The position numbers and the translations under genes are program-made. Under the pieces are notes generated by a model. That model was not told where the DNA came from. It worked only from the letters and a program-made list of their open reading frames with translations, and ran no database searches. From a virus, in the IMG/VR virus record IMGVR_UViG_3300036985_002432, positions 28,213-92,212 of that record: DNA of 64,000 nt; one strand, 5' to 3'. Shown here piece by piece: positions 15,083 to 55,894 of the stretch (its first letter is position 1; every line of letters begins with the position of its first letter).

Positions 15083-15718
15083 ATGGCAACGTATTTACAG
15101 TCAAGTCCCGGAATATATAAAATCACTAGTATGACTAATGGTAAGATATATGTTGGTTGTGCTTCTAATGTAAGAACTAGAATAAATGGACATCTTTATG
15201 ATTTAAGAAGAGAAAAACATAAAAACAGTTATTTACAAAAAGCATGGCTTAAGTATGGTGAAGAGAGTTTTGTTTTTGAAATAATTGAAAAATGTGATAT
15301 AACTGATTTACATGTTAGAGAACACTATTGGGTTAATAAATTTAATTGTCTAGATAGATCTATTGGTTATAATCTAAAACCAACAGATCCTAATGGGTGT
15401 TCTATTCATTCTGAAGAAACAAAAGAAAAATTAAGACAAGCTAATAAAGGTAAAAAACCTTCAGCACTATGTATTCAAAAACTTAAAGAAAGAACTCTTT
15501 CTTCAGAACATAAAGAAATAATGAGAAAGTCAAGAGAAGGTATAGATTATACAAAATTACATAGAGAAAAAAGAGGAAAAAAGGTTATAGACCAATCAAC
15601 AGGAATTATATATACTTCATTAGCTGAAGTTTGTGAATTACTTGGAATAACTAAAGGTTCTTTTTCAAGAATACTATTAGGAAAAAGAAAAAATAAAACA
15701 ACTTTTAAATACTTATAA
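15083..15718 (+). mobile_element. Free-standing GIY-YIG homing endonuclease gene (NUMOD3-like and C-terminal NUMOD1/HTH-like DNA-binding domains)
   Basis: GIYKIT..IYVGCA..R...H motif, catalytic-type REHYW, HSEETKEKLRQANKGKK (NUMOD3-like), YTSLAEVCELLGI (HTH-like). Confidence 0.9.
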
Positions 15719-43387: not shown

Positions 43388-43395
43388 CAAATATA
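43388..43395 (-). promoter_or_regulatory. Bacteroidota-type -7 promoter element TATATTTG
   Basis: Matches TAnnTTTG, 17 nt upstream of the ATG at 43370 and directly after a terminator. Confidence 0.65.
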
Positions 43396-48980: not shown

Positions 48981-50145
48981 CTTTTATCTCTATTTCAATT
49001 ATTTCCGGAACCATTTCCTCTTCAATCATCACTGTTTCTTCTATTTCAGGGGAGGCAACTTCAAATACATGCTCTTCAATCATAGTATAAGTATAGTCTT
49101 CTTGCATTATGTCTAATACATCAGAATTAACTGTTATAACTTTTACTTTAAAATATCCTGAATCACCTCCGTTTTGAATTACATCCCCGTGTAGCTTTAG
49201 TATTATGTCCAAGTTTTCTTTAGTAAACTTATTATGTTTCTTTAAGCTACTCATAATATCATCAACATTAGTACTATAGCCATATGACTTACCTAAGAAG
49301 CTTAATAAACTTTTAAAGTTTACATGACTTTTAGTTTTTGTATCATTTATCTTATATGAGTGATCACAAAATAACAACTCAAGATAAAGTAAACTTTTAT
49401 CATAATGACAATTAGCCATAATCTCCATTGCCAGTGTCCAGTTATCTCTATCTGTACTAGCAAACATTTCATTTAGACTTTCAAACATTTGATTATCAAT
49501 CTCAATAGCTGCATCACCATTTAAATGTAGTAATAAAGCTGACTCATCATAAAGTGTTTTATTAATTATGAATTCATAATTATTTATTTGATCAGCACTT
49601 AATATTACAAATCTTTCACTGTATCTATAATATTTTTCAAAATCATATGTATAATCAAATGGTAAAGAACTATTAGAAATAATATTATGCAATGTATTAT
49701 GGTCCGTTAATATTTCAGGAAGTGTATAAAACTCTAATGCTGTTTCAATTCTTTCATATTTAAAAACATCCATATAATCTTTTGCAAGAAGCATGAATGC
49801 TTTAAATTCTTCAGTATTAATTTTATATTCATAAATACTATCTGTTATTTTATCAAATGAATTGCTAGATCCAAATATATGGGTTGCTTCATTTATATCT
49901 CTTACAGTTTTAATTTTATAATCAACTGCTAAGTTTTTCATTTTTACTCTAGGAATAGTAACTCCTTTTAAAAAATATAACTTATCATTTAAAGAAGGTG
50001 TATATACAGTTTCAAGATTTGATAATGTATTATTATATCCAAATGCCCCAGTACAAAATTCTATTTGTGATGCAAGATTTAAATCTAGAGCATTATCATA
50101 AAATTTATCATTGAGAGCCATGGTAATTTTTAAATATGTATTCAT
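48952..50145 (-). CDS. Hypothetical protein (possible BRCT-like N-terminal segment)
   Basis: 397-aa ORF; LYFLKGVTIPR..KTVRDINEATHI loosely resembles BRCT; function unsupported. Confidence 0.6.
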   Translation of the reverse strand: MNTYLKITMALNDKFYDNALDLNLASQIEFCTGAFGYNNTLSNLETVYTPSLNDKLYFLKGVTIPRVKMKNLAVDYKIKTVRDINEATHIFGSSNSFDKITDSIYEYKINTEEFKAFMLLAKDYMDVFKYERIETALEFYTLPEILTDHNTLHNIISNSSLPFDYTYDFEKYYRYSERFVILSADQINNYEFIINKTLYDESALLLHLNGDAAIEIDNQMFESLNEMFASTDRDNWTLAMEIMANCHYDKSLLYLELLFCDHSYKINDTKTKSHVNFKSLLSFLGKSYGYSTNVDDIMSSLKKHNKFTKENLDIILKLHGDVIQNGGDSGYFKVKVITVNSDVLDIMQEDYTYTMIEEHVFEVASPEIEETVMIEEEMVPEIIEIEIKDESTDYFAL

Positions 50146-50156
50146 TTTAATTAGTT

Positions 50157-50181
50157 AAAAAGCCGGCTATTACACCGGCTT
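50157..50181 (-). terminator. Intrinsic terminator
   Basis: Minus strand AAGCCGGTGTAATAGCCGGCTT followed by a T-run. Confidence 0.8.
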
Positions 50182-50238
50182 ATATTTGTATTATATTTAT
50201 TTATTGTTCCATTTATTGGGAAACTGTTTAATGTGTGA

Positions 50239-51414
50239 TTACTTGACAGCCATTTTTACAACTGCGTTGTCTCTCATCATTGCTGCAAATTTTACTTTAT
50301 TGCCATTAACAATTTCTTTAACCATGAAATATCTCAAGTCATTAGTAAATGCATCACAATCTGTAGTAAGTTTTACTAATCTATCAATCATTGGAGCTCC
50401 AATTGCATTCTTTTCTGCATGAGTCAAACAATAGTTTACAATTCTAGTTGCAATTACACTTGATATATCTGCTCTAAATTCATCTCCAGAACCAACAGCA
50501 CTTGTTAAAGCACCTAAAACATAAGCTTCATTAACATTTGTTACTGCATCTTTTGGAGATATAATTTTATCAAGTTTATTATTGATAAACATAGTAAACA
50601 TACTTGAGAATTCTGGTCCAACAGAACCTTCACCAATCATTTGAATTAATGGTAACTCATCTTCAAACTTTTGAATAGAACTAATAGAGTTAAAGAAAGT
50701 AGTAATACTTCTTGGATTAACTCTTTGAGTTACTAATTCAGGATTCATCAATAAGAAATTTATACATCTACCATCAATGTTTACTGCTTCTGCCCATCTT
50801 GCCCATACATTAACATCAAATTTAACCTCAACTGAAACAAATCTAGTTTTCTGTGCAACATCTAAAGAAGTTACATTATAATCACCATTGTCTGGATTAG
50901 AAGTTAAGATTACATGCCAGTTTTTTGGAAGACTCCAAGAAATATATTCTTGTCTGTCTATTAATTCCATTGTAGCTTGCATAAATCTATGATCAGCTCT
51001 TGTATAATCATCTAGGATAAGAAATCCACCTTCTGTTTGACCTTGAATCCATTCAGGAGCAGCATGTGACATACGGCTTTGATTAGTAGGTCTATATTTA
51101 TTTTTGATATAAGTTTCCATTAAAGTTTCTTGTACCCAAGTTACTTTACCATCTTCTCTAATCATCTCAAATTCTTTAAACGGGAAACCAATTAAGTCAC
51201 CCAACTCTTCTATCTGTGATAGATTTAATTTTACAACTGACATACTAAGTTCATTAGCAAGTTGCATTAAAGATGAAGTCTTACCAAGACCTGCATCACC
51301 TTCAATATTTACTGCAACTGGCACTTTACCTTGTGCTTGAATATACTGGTTATTATTAACCATGTGCTTTAAATAACCTTTTAATTCATCTACGTTTAAT
51401 TGTACTTGACTCAT
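50239..51414 (-). CDS. MoxR-like AAA+ ATPase
   Basis: Walker A GDAGLGKT, Walker B LILDDYTRA, LTSNP sensor, NPRS motif; neighbouring vWA gene. Confidence 0.85.
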   Translation of the reverse strand: MSQVQLNVDELKGYLKHMVNNNQYIQAQGKVPVAVNIEGDAGLGKTSSLMQLANELSMSVVKLNLSQIEELGDLIGFPFKEFEMIREDGKVTWVQETLMETYIKNKYRPTNQSRMSHAAPEWIQGQTEGGFLILDDYTRADHRFMQATMELIDRQEYISWSLPKNWHVILTSNPDNGDYNVTSLDVAQKTRFVSVEVKFDVNVWARWAEAVNIDGRCINFLLMNPELVTQRVNPRSITTFFNSISSIQKFEDELPLIQMIGEGSVGPEFSSMFTMFINNKLDKIISPKDAVTNVNEAYVLGALTSAVGSGDEFRADISSVIATRIVNYCLTHAEKNAIGAPMIDRLVKLTTDCDAFTNDLRYFMVKEIVNGNKVKFAAMMRDNAVVKMAVK

Positions 51415-51424
51415 CTTTCTTTTT

Positions 51425-52165
51425 TTATAGTTCTAATTTAATTACTTTTCCCTTACACTTAAATCCATGTGTAAGAGCTTTTCTAACTGTGCCTTCATTG
51501 GCATTAATATATACAGCTGCTTCTTTTATACTATTAACCTTAATCTCAATTCCTTGATCAATAATTATAAGATTTTTAACAGTCCGGGGATTTCTTTGTC
51601 TTTTAGAAATACATTGAATTGTATTTAGTTTTTCTTTTTTCCATTGATATCCACTAGCAGATTTAATATCTCCTTTTGCAGCATCTCCTATAGATGTAGC
51701 ATTTCCATTAATAGCTAAAGCAGCTTTTCTTATTGTATCATATTCATTTACATAATTACCATCCAAAGTATACTGATATACTTTTATTGAAGCATGATTT
51801 TCTTTACCTAACCTTTTATTTGTGTTAGCCATACTTAACTTTTTTCTTGTTTCAACACTTTTTGCATGTGTTACAGGATTCCTTTCTACATTTACATCAC
51901 AATTATAGTATTCAATATAATAAGCTTCTCTTTCTATGTAATTATCACAAATTTCAATAAGTTTAAAACTAATATCATTGGGATACTTATCATAAATTCT
52001 TTGTAAAAAACTATTATAATGTTTTCCTTTTCTTAATACAAGTACATGTTGCTTATACCTTTCATATAAACTAATACTGCTTCCAATATATTTGTGAGAA
52101 TTACACTCAATAATATATACCCCAGATTTTCTAACTAAATCTTCTTTTAATGTTAATAATTTCAT
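51425..52165 (-). mobile_element. Free-standing GIY-YIG homing endonuclease gene with NUMOD1-like repeats
   Basis: GVYII..YIGSS..R...H, REAYYI, two NUMOD1-like units (VYQYTLDG..Y.TIRKAA; SIKEAA); ATG at 52165. Confidence 0.9.
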
Positions 52166-52168
52166 ATA

Positions 52169-52176
52169 CAAATATA
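52169..52176 (-). promoter_or_regulatory. Bacteroidota-type -7 element TATATTTG for the GIY-YIG gene
   Basis: TATATTTG-TAT-ATG; only 3 nt before the start codon. Confidence 0.65.
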
Positions 52177-52194
52177 CATATAAAAAATGTGATC

Positions 52195-52211
52195 AAGTAA
52201 TTAAATTAGAA
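52195..52211. repeat. 17-bp perfect inverted repeat of 51431-51447
   Basis: AAGTAATTAAATTAGAA (52195-52211) is the reverse complement of TTCTAATTTAATTACTT (51431-51447). Confidence 0.95.
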
Positions 52212-53408
52212 TTAAAGTTCAAGTTTTATAACTTTTCCCGGAAGTTCCGTGTTTAATTCTGATTGTTCAGAAATTACCCATAATACGGGTGCTTTTGGTT
52301 TAACATCTGCTGTACATTCACCATCAGTAAAATATACTAAACTTGTATATTTCCGCAGATTCTCATTATAATATTCCAAAACTGGATCAAATTCAGTACC
52401 GCCTCTGCCAGATATAGCAATGCCTCCAAATTTACCAGTATATTCTTTTATACTTTGTATTACAGTATCACATTGAATTATAGTAATACCAACTCCAGAC
52501 TTATGAATATGATGTATCTCATTCATAAATTCTTTAAGTTCTTGATCACTTACAGATCCAGAAGTATCAATAGCCAATAACATATGTTGCCTCATCTTAA
52601 TCTTAAGACCCGGATTATCTGTATATCTTCTATTTTCTTTTCTTCTAATCTTCTTAGTAAATACTTTTGTGCTAACACCAGTAAACCTACGGATATAACT
52701 TTTCCAGTCAAACTTAGGCTTTTCAATCTTATCCATTTCAAGTAGATAATCACTCAATTCTCCAGGTATATTACCTCTTTTCTTTTGAGTCATTTCTGCT
52801 GCATGTTTTAACAGAGTATCTACTTGTTTATTAATTAACTTTTGCTCAGCTTCAGATAAATTAGCAAACTCATCCCATGTAGGATGATCTGATGGGTATC
52901 CATCTTCAGAATCCATTTGATCACATAATTGATCAAAGTTTGCATCTCCAGATGTACCATTTTTATCTTTTTCTTCTTTAGCTTCACTAAGTTTATCATA
53001 ATAATATCTAGTACCTGCTTTAAGATCAAGATTAAGATCTGGATAATCTTCAATCATAATACCACCTTCAGGTAGTAAGTGAGATAGAATATACTGATTA
53101 ATCTCCATATCCATAGCTGTATTAGCTAATTTTCTATCAGAATACTTATGGTGTTCTGTAAGATGAAAGAAAGCAATATGTAATAGCTCATGTTTAAGTA
53201 ATCCAAATTTATGGTCATCACTAAGTGTTTCCCAAAACTCTGGATTTATAGCCAACTGGTAATTAATACCATTTTTACTTACTCCGGCTGTAGGAACAAC
53301 TCTTTTGTTCCATATTTTATTTAACATTATCAGTAAAAAACCATAAAATGGCTCAGCCAAAATAAGATTTTTACTTATCTTGGCTAAAGAATCTTCTTTA
53401 CTCTGCAT
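52212..53408 (-). CDS. DUF2201-type metallopeptidase-vWA domain protein
   Basis: HELLH zincin motif, MIDAS DTSGS, GRGGTEF and YFTDG; partner of the MoxR-like ATPase. Confidence 0.88.
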   Translation of the reverse strand: MQSKEDSLAKISKNLILAEPFYGFLLIMLNKIWNKRVVPTAGVSKNGINYQLAINPEFWETLSDDHKFGLLKHELLHIAFFHLTEHHKYSDRKLANTAMDMEINQYILSHLLPEGGIMIEDYPDLNLDLKAGTRYYYDKLSEAKEEKDKNGTSGDANFDQLCDQMDSEDGYPSDHPTWDEFANLSEAEQKLINKQVDTLLKHAAEMTQKKRGNIPGELSDYLLEMDKIEKPKFDWKSYIRRFTGVSTKVFTKKIRRKENRRYTDNPGLKIKMRQHMLLAIDTSGSVSDQELKEFMNEIHHIHKSGVGITIIQCDTVIQSIKEYTGKFGGIAISGRGGTEFDPVLEYYNENLRKYTSLVYFTDGECTADVKPKAPVLWVISEQSELNTELPGKVIKLEL

Positions 53409-53826
53409 TATCTTTAAGTTTTGTAATTATTTCAAACTTGTCAGTAGGATATCCCCATGCATCCATAATAGACATCAAGTGTTTATTATGAAAATCTAAA
53501 AACAATAACATAACTTCTTTATTAGCTTTGTGAGTAATTAGTTTATGAAATACTACAGGCATACTTGGTGTACCAATATTTTTTAAATCTGAGCTCTCTA
53601 ACATTTTAATTGACTCAAGATATTTTATCATCTTTGGACAATTTTGTTTCCATTCTTCTGGAGTTACATTTACAAATTTATACAATACATATATTGCATC
53701 TGAAGATCTTTTAATATCAGAATTTTCAATGGCCATAAAAGCCATATTTCTATTATCTTCTTCTTGTGAATTTAGCATCATTCTTAAGTTTATTACTTCT
53801 TCAGTTCCTATTATTACTTTACTCAT
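53398..53826 (-). CDS. Hypothetical protein
   Basis: 142-aa ORF, TAATG-coupled. Confidence 0.75.
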   Translation of the reverse strand: MSKVIIGTEEVINLRMMLNSQEEDNRNMAFMAIENSDIKRSSDAIYVLYKFVNVTPEEWKQNCPKMIKYLESIKMLESSDLKNIGTPSMPVVFHKLITHKANKEVMLLFLDFHNKHLMSIMDAWGYPTDKFEIITKLKDNAE

Positions 53827-54017
53827 TAGTCTTCAATTTTTAATCCTTCTTCATCTAAATAATATAAATCCATTAATGTACCATTTAAGTCCATCATAAC
53901 CATATATGCAGGATTATCTGTATCAACAGCATCCATGTCATAATTACTTTCTAAAAGTTCTATAGCTTCATTAATTAAAGCTTCTACTTTTTCTCTAATT
54001 TGTTCTACTCTTTCCAT
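53826..54017 (-). CDS. Hypothetical acidic protein (63 aa) flanked by 19-bp direct repeats
   Basis: ORF track; repeats at 53824-53842 and 54015-54033. Confidence 0.75.
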   Translation of the reverse strand: MERVEQIREKVEALINEAIELLESNYDMDAVDTDNPAYMVMMDLNGTLMDLYYLDEEGLKIED

Positions 54018-54079
54018 TAGTCTTCTATTTTTAGTGTTTTAATCATCCATTCTGTGGGTGTATTTATATTATCCACCCA
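54017..54079 (-). pseudogene. Orphaned 3' end of the DUF6915-like gene (WVDNINTPTEWMIKTLKIED*)
   Basis: Manual translation matches the C-terminus of 55149-55496 (WVTMIASGKLESWAIKTLKIED*) and still overlaps the next ATG (TAATG). Confidence 0.8.
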
Positions 54080-54092
54080 TCTTATTCTGATT

Positions 54093-54299
54093 TTATCCAC
54101 ATTGATATTGTTCTCCATTTTGTGCAATAGCATCTAATACTCTAAATAAAGGAACCAATACAGTACCATTGGTATAGACTTCTTCTTTATCTTTAAAGCT
54201 ATAATTAATTATAAAATCAATAATCTTAAGTTGATCATCTGTCATACCAACTAATCTGCTTTTTACAGATATATCATTTTTTATTTCTTCTTTTTCCAT
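54093..54299 (-). CDS. Hypothetical protein flanked by 17-bp direct repeats
   Basis: Probable start ATG 54299 (MEKEEIK; ATG 54317 is the alternative); repeats at 54077-54093 and 54296-54312. Confidence 0.7.
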   Translation of the reverse strand: MEKEEIKNDISVKSRLVGMTDDQLKIIDFIINYSFKDKEEVYTNGTVLVPLFRVLDAIAQNGEQYQCG

Positions 54300-54334
54300 C
54301 TTATTCTGATTTATCATTTCTATTTAATATTATT

Positions 54335-55087
54335 TCAAAATAAATTATCATGAATAGCCTTTATCCATGTTTTAAATTCTGCAAGTGTCATCTTACCTTT
54401 ACATCTATTACATTGTTTACAACAAGCAACACAGTTTTCCTTATTATATCCAATAGTATTATCTACTCTATCTATCCCATTATAATAAAACGGAACACCT
54501 GATCTAACTTTTTTAGTTCTAGCATCTAATATTTGATATAACTGAGAAGGTTGTCTATTACAATAAGTACAATTATTAGAACTGATATTAATTAATTCAT
54601 CAAGTGTTAATTTAAAATCAAGTTCTCTTTCTTTTGCATGATAAACATATGATCTATACAAACCTTTATAACCAGTAAGTATGTTTTTTTTATTTTCAAA
54701 AGGAAAACATGGAGATTTACCACAAGTTCTTGTATTCCCATTTATAACAGCACTGTAAGGAAGCCATTTTTGATCTCCACATTCACATTGCACATGTAAT
54801 AAAGTGGATGTCTTATTATCTTTTTTAACACTTTTTCTACCAAGATATATAAACTTTGTAGGATCTCCATGTTTACTATAAAGTTTTTGATTTAATTCAA
54901 ATTCTTTTCTAGTAACTGCAGCTTTACCTTTCTCATATATCTTATTAAGATTATTTCTTTTAACAACTCTTTCAATGATACCTCTTTTTAAACTTTCTTG
55001 TTTTGCAAATGCCAACATACTAAGTGAACTGTTTAAATATTTGGTAATCAACTGTTTTTCTTGCTCTGAACCAGGAAGTATTTTCAT
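54335..55087 (-). mobile_element. Free-standing HNH-type homing endonuclease gene
   Basis: CECG..G.TRTCG motif, CTYC, NGIDRVDNTIGY..NCVACCKQCNRCK; ATG at 55087. Confidence 0.85.
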
Positions 55088-55118
55088 AATTGTAATTGTT
55101 ATATATTTATATTTTATA

Positions 55119-55126
55119 CAAATATA
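55119..55126 (-). promoter_or_regulatory. Bacteroidota-type -7 element TATATTTG for the HNH gene
   Basis: Exact TAnnTTTG match in the intergenic gap, 31 nt upstream of the ATG. Confidence 0.6.
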
Positions 55127-55148
55127 CAAATAAATATAACTAAAACAA

Positions 55149-55496
55149 TTAATCTTCTATTTTCAAGGTCTTTATAGCCCAAGATTCAAGTTTTCCTGAA
55201 GCTATCATCGTAACCCATTCTTTAGCAGTAGGGATATAGTTATTACAATCCTCTTTTACATGTTGTTCTCCAATATATCTGACATATACATCTTTACCAT
55301 CACAATTAGTAATAGTCATACCAAATCTTTTCTCACATTCAAATATTCCCTCACTGTGGTGACGGAACATTCTATGTTTACTGTGTCCAATCCATGCTTT
55401 AGTTTCATCAAACCATTTATGAATCTCTATATAATCTATTGCTGAACCACCAAACTTTCTAGCTGATGATATAGCATGTTGCCAAGGATGTGCCAT
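55149..55496 (-). CDS. DUF6915-like His-rich protein
   Basis: MAHPWQHA.SS.RKFGG, IH.WFDETK, HR.FRHHSEGIF, EQHVKED. Confidence 0.7.
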   Translation of the reverse strand: MAHPWQHAISSARKFGGSAIDYIEIHKWFDETKAWIGHSKHRMFRHHSEGIFECEKRFGMTITNCDGKDVYVRYIGEQHVKEDCNNYIPTAKEWVTMIASGKLESWAIKTLKIED

Positions 55497-55894
55497 TATT
55501 CTAAAGTTTTATTAATTAAATCTCCTTCATGTTCATAATCTTCAGTATGTGTTATATTAATACTATTAAATATTTTATATTCTCCTGAAGGTACTTTTAT
55601 ACATAAATAGCCCTGACCACCTTCATTATTCCACCAATCTTCAATACTATCAAGTATTTTTTCTTGAGCAAAATCTTCTAAATCACCATATATACTTGTA
55701 CTTAATGTTTCTAATTGATTTTCACCCCAAACATTAATATCATGTATATCTTCCCAAGTCATATTTGGCGTTTGTGAATATACAATTCTTTCAATTGCAC
55801 CACTATCTCCGCCACCTTCATAATATACATTAAGTGCAGTAATACCAAGATCAGTCAGCCCTACTAGTAGAGTCTGCATTTTTAATTCATCCAT
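55496..55894 (-). CDS. DUF6878-like acidic protein
   Basis: YEGGGDSGAIE and WWNNEGGQG motifs; coupled to the DUF6915-like gene. Confidence 0.65.
   Translation of the reverse strand: MDELKMQTLLVGLTDLGITALNVYYEGGGDSGAIERIVYSQTPNMTWEDIHDINVWGENQLETLSTSIYGDLEDFAQEKILDSIEDWWNNEGGQGYLCIKVPSGEYKIFNSINITHTEDYEHEGDLINKTLE

Follow-up and report, generated by a model that had tools for sequence, protein, structure and literature searches.

The perfect 17-bp inverted repeat that brackets a homing endonuclease gene in this phage genome may consist of two copies of the homing site of the encoded enzyme, one native to the invaded gene and the other inverted and carried by the mobile cassette, with the latter copy, the left arm, acting as an operator of the type described for I-TevI. 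This reading, which draws on sequence comparison and on analogy to the I-TevI system, is given a chance just short of even.

The window, that is the whole stretch of 64,000 nucleotides analysed, originates from a 92-kb IMG/VR virus record, and a megablast search against GenBank phages gave no match. The minus strand is the coding strand of the three genes concerned, which encode a vWA-like protein, the endonuclease and an AAA-type ATPase. The vWA protein matches the Pfam families PF13203 (E 5e-18) and PF09967 (E 4e-20) and has relatives on about 600 viral contigs. Rfam families were absent from positions 50000-55500 at E values up to 0.1. The features under discussion are, in window coordinates:

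50239-51414, minus strand: AAA-type ATPase gene, 391 aa, starting 10 nt past the shared native stop codon
51425-52165, minus strand: homing endonuclease gene (GIY-YIG and NUMOD1), 246 aa, with the ATG at 52165 and the stop at 51425
51431-51447, minus strand: native vWA end (codons K-V-I-K-L-E) that forms the right arm and is read as the final codons of the endonuclease ORF
51444-52230, minus strand: mobile cassette of 787 bp, delimited by natural empty alleles, its junction ambiguous over 9 common bases (GGGAAAAGT)
52166-52194, minus strand: spacer with the promoter-like box TATATTTG (52169-52176), conserved in allele alignments
52195-52211, minus strand: left arm, non-coding, repeating the native target in inverted orientation from the first base past the vWA stop, candidate operator
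52212-52239, minus strand: recoded replacement vWA end borne by the cassette (GKVIKLEL-stop), direct repeat
52212-53408, minus strand: vWA-like or putative metallopeptidase gene (DUF2201_N and DUF2201), 398 aa, invaded by the cassette

The endonuclease cassette and its empty alleles

The extent of the cassette is given by natural alleles that are devoid of it. When Logan contigs of public runs were compared with positions 50800-52800, DNA contigs of the runs X3 (lake water) and X4 (sediment), which belong to different studies, were found to join position 51443 directly to 52231, skipping 787 nt, with 9 bases common at the joint and 0-5 differences per 160-570 nt of flank (at least 99% identity to the window). 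These joints fix the size of the cassette at 787 bp. The occupied form is present in the runs X2 and X4. As judged from these contigs, the cassette is either mobile or recently lost, its presence or absence being polymorphic among near-identical phages at one fixed site, as in homing behaviour.

The identity of the insertion site follows from more distant relatives. With the vWA protein as query 80 related loci were retrieved, and the endonuclease query led to 13 loci in viral and 7 in metagenome sequences. In about 70 loci without an endonuclease gene the vWA frame ends with AAAGTAATTAA[A/G]TTAGAA, a Leu or Ile codon and the stop, and the ATG of the ATPase gene follows about 10 nt after this stop. 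As these vWA ends match the right arm, the right arm represents the native vWA end and thus the unoccupied target sequence, the whole native end extending over 51425-51452. In all occupied loci the endonuclease gene resides at the same vWA codon, the cassette being inserted nine codons ahead of the vWA stop. On the coding strand the cassette consists of a recoded vWA end, the left arm, a 29-nt spacer and the endonuclease ORF up to GGGAAAAGT, from where the ORF enters the native vWA end in frame and uses the vWA stop codon as its own.

With respect to the encoded protein, the catalytic domain belongs to the GIY-YIG family (Pfam PF01541), and the N-terminal 90 residues resemble the catalytic domain of I-TevI in sequence (phmmer against 1MK0/1LN0, E 1e-5) as well as in the predicted model (Foldseek against 1LN0, TM 0.79, rmsd 1.7 A), with Y17, Y26, G28, R36 and E80 invariant in 32 homologues. 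The model is an AlphaFold (AF2) prediction built from the 32-homologue alignment (pLDDT 84), used instead of a single-sequence model that was unusable (pLDDT 36). In the C-terminal half Pfam recognises two NUMOD1 stretches, the model displays two beta-beta-alpha-alpha-beta modules at residues 129-176 and 199-244, and the fold shows a weak resemblance to that of the I-HmuI DNA-binding part (1U3E, E 0.02); a zinc-finger family, the linker element of I-TevI, was absent among the Pfam matches. Sequence and model together point to an enzyme built like I-TevI, with the catalytic domain followed by a separate, modular and predicted DNA-binding region at the C-terminus. The last beta-strand of the second NUMOD1-like module in the model comprises residues 240-244 (KVIKL, window 51431-51445), which are encoded by the native vWA end, so that the element borrows its C-terminus from its target.

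All 32 database clusters of the endonuclease, at 61-91% identity, are exactly 246 aa long, and the nearest outgroup endonucleases are P0034 and P0035 with 51% and 36% identity, respectively; a scan of viral contigs gave one distant match only. The endonuclease alleles are mosaic (alignment A1, columns 79-250 and 601-720), combining two N-terminal types with two linker/DNA-binding types, with the endonuclease of locus L099 joining the N-terminal type of L091 and L100 to the C-terminal type of the window. Elsewhere in the same genome a further GIY-YIG gene, only distantly related, is located on the plus strand (window about 15095-15457, 37% identity over 109 residues, in a frame of 214 aa).

The inverted repeat and the conservation of its left arm

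Read on the coding strand, TTCTAATTTAATTACTT (52211-52195) comes immediately after the vWA stop TAA (52214-52212), and AAGTAATTAAATTAGAA is found at 51447-51431 within the last codons of the endonuclease ORF. The perfect inverted repeat described in the initial annotation was recovered, as 52195-52211 is the exact reverse complement of 51431-51447 (17/17) with 747 nt between the arms, and a repeat search extends the arms to 20 nt at 95% (19/20; 51428-51447 and 52195-52214). The duplicated gene end, likewise noted there, corresponds to a direct repeat of 82% between 51425-51452 and 52212-52239, both copies of which encode GKVIKLEL-stop. The Leu codon of the recoded copy is CTT in 16/16 distinct occupied alleles, versus TTA in the native end.

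In view of a mobile segment bracketed by a repeat and a window of 29.6% G+C, the arms might be taken for the terminal inverted repeats of an element of the transposon type, or for a match that arose by chance in AT-rich sequence. The right arm is present in every empty allele, however, and was therefore not brought by the element; moreover, the cassette encodes the GIY-YIG endonuclease only and no transposase. With respect to chance, a perfect inverted repeat of 17 nt did not occur once when the 2.7-kb region was simulated 500 times with a first-order Markov model (mode 11-12, maximum 16), the arm sequence has two matches only in the 64-kb window with up to 2 mismatches allowed, and the left arm is conserved in 16/16 distinct occupied alleles. 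For practical purposes these sequence comparisons effectively refute both explanations.

The left arm is retained wherever the cassette is found. It is located at the same place in 20/20 other occupied loci that were retrieved by a protein search blind to the arm (13 viral, 7 metagenome), the endonucleases of which are 59-90% identical, and the repeat is kept in every occupied allele found, one of the outcomes by which the earlier proposals were to be judged. The 16 distinct occupied alleles are composed of these protein-search loci, the window and two alleles from a DNA-pattern scan. Among 11 distinct alleles, the 17 nt of the left arm have a mean nucleotide identity of 0.88 versus 0.62 at 4-fold sites of the adjacent ORF, and for pairs with endonucleases less than 70% identical the values are 0.83 and 0.50. 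By this comparison the left arm, although non-coding, is under purifying selection. The whole 46-nt region upstream of the ATG, the arm included, is conserved to a similar degree.

The pattern of variation within the arm relates to the gene end which it mirrors. In inverted orientation the left arm of the window matches the native target at 17/17 positions; for the 13 other distinct alleles compared the figure is 11-17/17. Variation, numbered in target orientation, concerns positions 1, 2, 8, 9, 11 and 14. Among the internal positions (n=15), 3/5 mirrors of codon thirds vary versus 1/10 of the others (Fisher p 0.08). The left arm retains the native T12, and its position 14 is occupied by a purine throughout; it is at these two positions that the recoded vWA end invariably departs from the native one. 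The left arm, while non-coding, thus appears to keep the codon periodicity of the mirrored gene end; a generic promoter element would not behave in this way, but an RNA partner of the coding sequence could. Compared with the endonuclease domain types, the arm variants track linkage groups, and the single recombinant, L099, is insufficient to demonstrate co-evolution of operator and protein.

Comparable insertions in this phage group do not carry such an arm. A bracketing repeat was not found in the ATPase-interrupting GIY-YIG elements of L010, L020, L031 and L049, nor was an inverted copy of its own target found in the neighbouring HNH cassette (54017-55220), which makes the arm specific to the cassette studied here. 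The same observation bears on a role of the arm at the DNA level in mobility or stability, whereby it would limit co-conversion, disfavour deletion through the 28-bp direct repeat or provide a second site for the endonuclease in homing. Direct repeats flanking the cassette, the joint presence of empty and occupied forms in the same samples and the hybrid vWA end of an empty relative described below are in line with such a role. We know of no homing pathway, however, that requires an inverted copy of the target, and since the other endonuclease insertions lack one, this role is considered improbable.

The empty relative, L003 (L003:2000-2060), is closely related to the window (vWA 95%, ATPase 99% identical) and possesses a vWA end that is a hybrid of a recoded 5' part and a native 3' part. 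By its sequence such an end is as expected from recombination between the 28-bp direct repeats (deletion) or from partial co-conversion.

Operator and RNA readings of the repeat

The position of the left arm relative to a predicted promoter bears on the operator reading. The box TATATTTG is conserved in all alleles (as TATTTTTG in one), and 18 nt (52194-52177) separate it from the arm, which is situated toward the -33 side just as had been stated initially. A TTG at 52196-52194, which overlaps the arm end, lies 17 nt upstream of the box; a TTG at -33 is not conserved among the alleles. As the ATG follows 3 nt after the box, the transcript may have no leader or almost none. The longer form TATATTTGTA is present in three intergenic copies in the window, which are the endonuclease box itself, a copy at the start of the neighbouring HNH cassette (minus strand, 55119-55126) and a copy directly after a terminator-like hairpin with a T run (minus strand, 43388-43395). 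By its sequence and context TATATTTGTA is probably a -7 promoter element of the phage or its host, and its recurrence supports the predicted Bacteroidota-type TAnnTTTG promoter; the short box motif is not enriched across the window (58 seen versus 59 expected). Since the HNH cassette has the TATATTTGTA box without the arm, the arm is not a generic promoter part. In the metatranscriptome X19 matches are 35-41-nt contigs only, of 90-95% identity and confined to a conserved stretch of the ATPase gene.

These promoter data equally concern the proposition that the left arm is a scar of the birth of the cassette, generated by fold-back or template switch in the repair of the first break and subsequently retained because it acts in cis in a way that has nothing to do with the target, for instance as an upstream promoter element or by insulating the cassette against vWA read-through, with neither endonuclease binding nor RNA pairing involved. 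Inverted duplications beside a break site are a known product of repair, the end of the arm coincides exactly with the edge of the target-derived sequence, and the entire 46-nt spacer, not the arm alone, is conserved. On the other hand, a generic promoter element is not expected to vary at the mirrors of target codon thirds or to maintain 11-17/17 complementarity when synonymous sites are near saturation, and the HNH cassette uses the same box without any such element. A small but real chance is assigned to this scenario.

If the left arm is an operator, the NUMOD1 modules would recognise it as they recognise the target in cassette-free phages, and no suitable cleavage context would be available beside it. 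As the copy is inverted, the remainder of the protein would point over the promoter; that linker and catalytic domain are directed there and not back into the vWA gene is deduced from an I-TevI-like geometry, the distances of which are not simply transferable since the DNA-binding modules are NUMOD1/I-HmuI-like and unlike those of I-TevI. Binding would repress transcription of the endonuclease gene or block read-through from the vWA gene. The recoded vWA end (CTT for TTA) would represent a non-binding copy that keeps occupied genomes immune. As the native right arm is intact in occupied genomes, immunity cannot rest solely on the loss of the binding site.

What a protein that reads both arms predicts is conservation of each arm toward the same consensus without co-variation between them, and the alleles fit this prediction. 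Selection on the arm, the shared consensus and the codon periodicity would nevertheless follow just as well if the left arm had an RNA partner under coding constraint. For the operator suggested in the initial annotation it can be said that its DNA side has gained ground, with the right arm being the target and the left arm apparently selected, cassette-specific and on the -33 side, and that its protein side is a matter of the predicted binding described above.

The second suggestion made there was that the arms pair in the mRNA. A long-range RNA helix would form in read-through vWA transcripts and loop out the 747-nt endonuclease message; in its variants, the helix would bring the vWA stop near the ATPase start and thereby restore translational coupling, or provide a double-stranded site for processing, comparable with the stems on either side of rRNAs. 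Taken jointly these possibilities are unlikely. That an arm acting at the RNA level folds the selfish gene out of the message, so that ribosomes and RNases treat vWA and ATPase as cassette-free, is quite unlikely. It is possible that the same 17 bases have a dual use as DNA operator and RNA arm.

In thermodynamic terms the helix is well predicted. It appears in the MFE and centroid folds of the 856-nt transcript (z -2.6), with a pair probability that reaches 0.98 in the window and is not below 0.73 in 8/14 alleles, although its presence in the window fold is expected, because any perfect 17-mer complement folds so. The invariant recoding of the vWA end also abolishes a competing local hairpin. 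The gap between vWA and ATPase in the empty alleles, only about 10 nt, together with the overlap of the endonuclease stop with the ATPase ATG in L100, renders translational coupling plausible.

The comparison of alleles does not reflect such pairing. In an alignment of 14 alleles 88.7% of the cells are paired versus 88.8 +/- 0.8% after shuffling of the partners, the covariation score is 0.074 versus 0.071 shuffled, and both-sided changes amount to two single instances versus 1.6 expected, in a data set where the power to detect co-variation is limited since only 6/17 arm positions vary. Complementarity over the 17 positions is 14.36 within the own allele and 14.31 across alleles (permutation p 0.48; 0.65 with G-U pairs). 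Among the types of left-arm substitution, 5/6 break the pair, and only a T-to-C change in a single allele, L099, meets a partner change (C-G). The commonest change, T to C at arm position 4 (6/14 alleles), is never matched by the available synonymous change of TTA to TTG in the right arm. In 6/14 alleles the helix probability is near 0, the arm nevertheless being kept.

Two further considerations concern translation and transcription. As the left arm begins with the first base after the stop and the right arm resides in a translated ORF, ribosomes would be expected to melt both; and if TATATTTG is the promoter, the endonuclease's own transcript would be without the left arm. In L099 a small gene of about 195 nt intervenes between the right arm and the ATPase start, and juxtaposition of the vWA stop with the ATPase start cannot be the conserved function there. 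Cumulatively, the comparative tests lower the RNA model, which finds thermodynamic but no evolutionary support.

Pairing of the left arm with the recoded vWA end in a local hairpin was considered as a terminator or attenuator and rejected: only 10-13/17 pairs form, positions 5, 8, 12 and 14 are mismatched in nearly all alleles (12 and 14 without exception), and folding of the 101-nt region does not yield this hairpin (z 0.05).

Known homing endonucleases and related insertions

Autorepression by a homing endonuclease has a precedent in I-TevI of the td intron of phage T4, which binds an operator (Edgell et al., 2004, reviewed in PMC2988022). This operator is 15/20 identical to the homing site, overlaps the late promoter of the gene and is bound with the affinity of the homing site, while its cleavage is about 100-fold poorer because no CNNNG is located at the right distance (PMC2988022). 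[quoted passage not shown]

The common denominator of I-TevI and the cassette is a GIY-YIG homing endonuclease with an I-TevI-like catalytic domain and a homing-site look-alike at the promoter (here a predicted one) upstream of the ORF, devoid of cleavage context (presumably so for the cassette). In contrast to the 15/20 of I-TevI, the look-alike is identical at 17/17 positions in the window and at 11-17/17 in its relatives. The gene is free-standing, whereas that of I-TevI is intron-encoded, and two NUMOD1/I-HmuI-like modules take the place of the zinc finger, minor-groove helix and helix-turn-helix of I-TevI in the DNA-binding part. Furthermore, the copy is inverted and located on the -33 side, unlike the I-TevI operator not over the whole promoter, and the promoter is a candidate Bacteroidota-type TAnnTTTG box instead of a T4 late promoter.

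Hairpins that sequester the ribosome-binding site in read-through transcripts have been described for I-TevI, I-TevII, I-TevIII, segB and mobE of phage Aeh1 (PMC2988022). The cassette shares with these T4-type genes the polycistronic context, an own (here predicted) promoter just upstream and the fact that both halves of the structure are present in read-through transcripts only. The T4-type hairpins are local and cover the ribosome-binding site, whereas the helix predicted here spans 747 nt, leaves the start codon uncovered and lacks co-variation.

With respect to its mode of insertion, inside or at the end of a conserved phage gene, the cassette resembles the HNH cassette (54017-55220) and 'genes in pieces' such as Aeh1 mobE in nrdA. 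As in other gene-end replacement cassettes, a substitute coding end is supplied and the old end is left downstream as a direct repeat. Peculiar to the GIY-YIG cassette are the inverted duplicate of the old end and the use of the old end as the last beta-strand of a predicted DNA-binding module.

What distinguishes the look-alike in this uncultured phage is that it is a perfect inverted copy, beside the gene of a free-standing enzyme, which has been conserved while the gene diverged to about 60% identity. Should binding take place, target mimicry would be a means of self-limitation at which selfish nucleases have arrived recurrently, and the 17-bp arm would give the recognition sequence of an uncharacterised enzyme. 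If, instead, the RNA reading held, the arms would provide a splicing-free way of hiding a free-standing endonuclease gene inside an operon. The cassette is in addition a compact natural example of a selfish element that sits inside an essential operon: a recoded end is provided for the invaded gene, the old end serves as the C-terminus of the endonuclease, and the junction of that stop with the start of the following gene stays as it was.

In many relatives other GIY-YIG genes, 29-36% identical to the cassette endonuclease, are inserted in the ATPase gene, for which three different sites are used (aa 43/44, 73/74 and about 141-147). Such interruptions are found in L020 (3293-3718), L006, L009-L011, L016, L022, L031, L040, L049, L080 and L091-L093; the insertion in L020 is an Rfam group I intron (59 bits), and the ATPase gene of L010 is split into ORFs of 141 and 251 aa. 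In L099 (2238-2440), L023, L029, L030 and L071-L073 the vWA (or endonuclease) gene and the ATPase gene are separated by a small ORF of about 63 aa, which is cysteine-rich and the ATG of which overlaps the preceding stop codon. In L100 (940-950) no spacer is left between the endonuclease and ATPase genes, the stop of the former overlapping the start of the latter (ATGA), an arrangement which suggests translational coupling of the ATPase to any ORF that terminates in the native vWA end.
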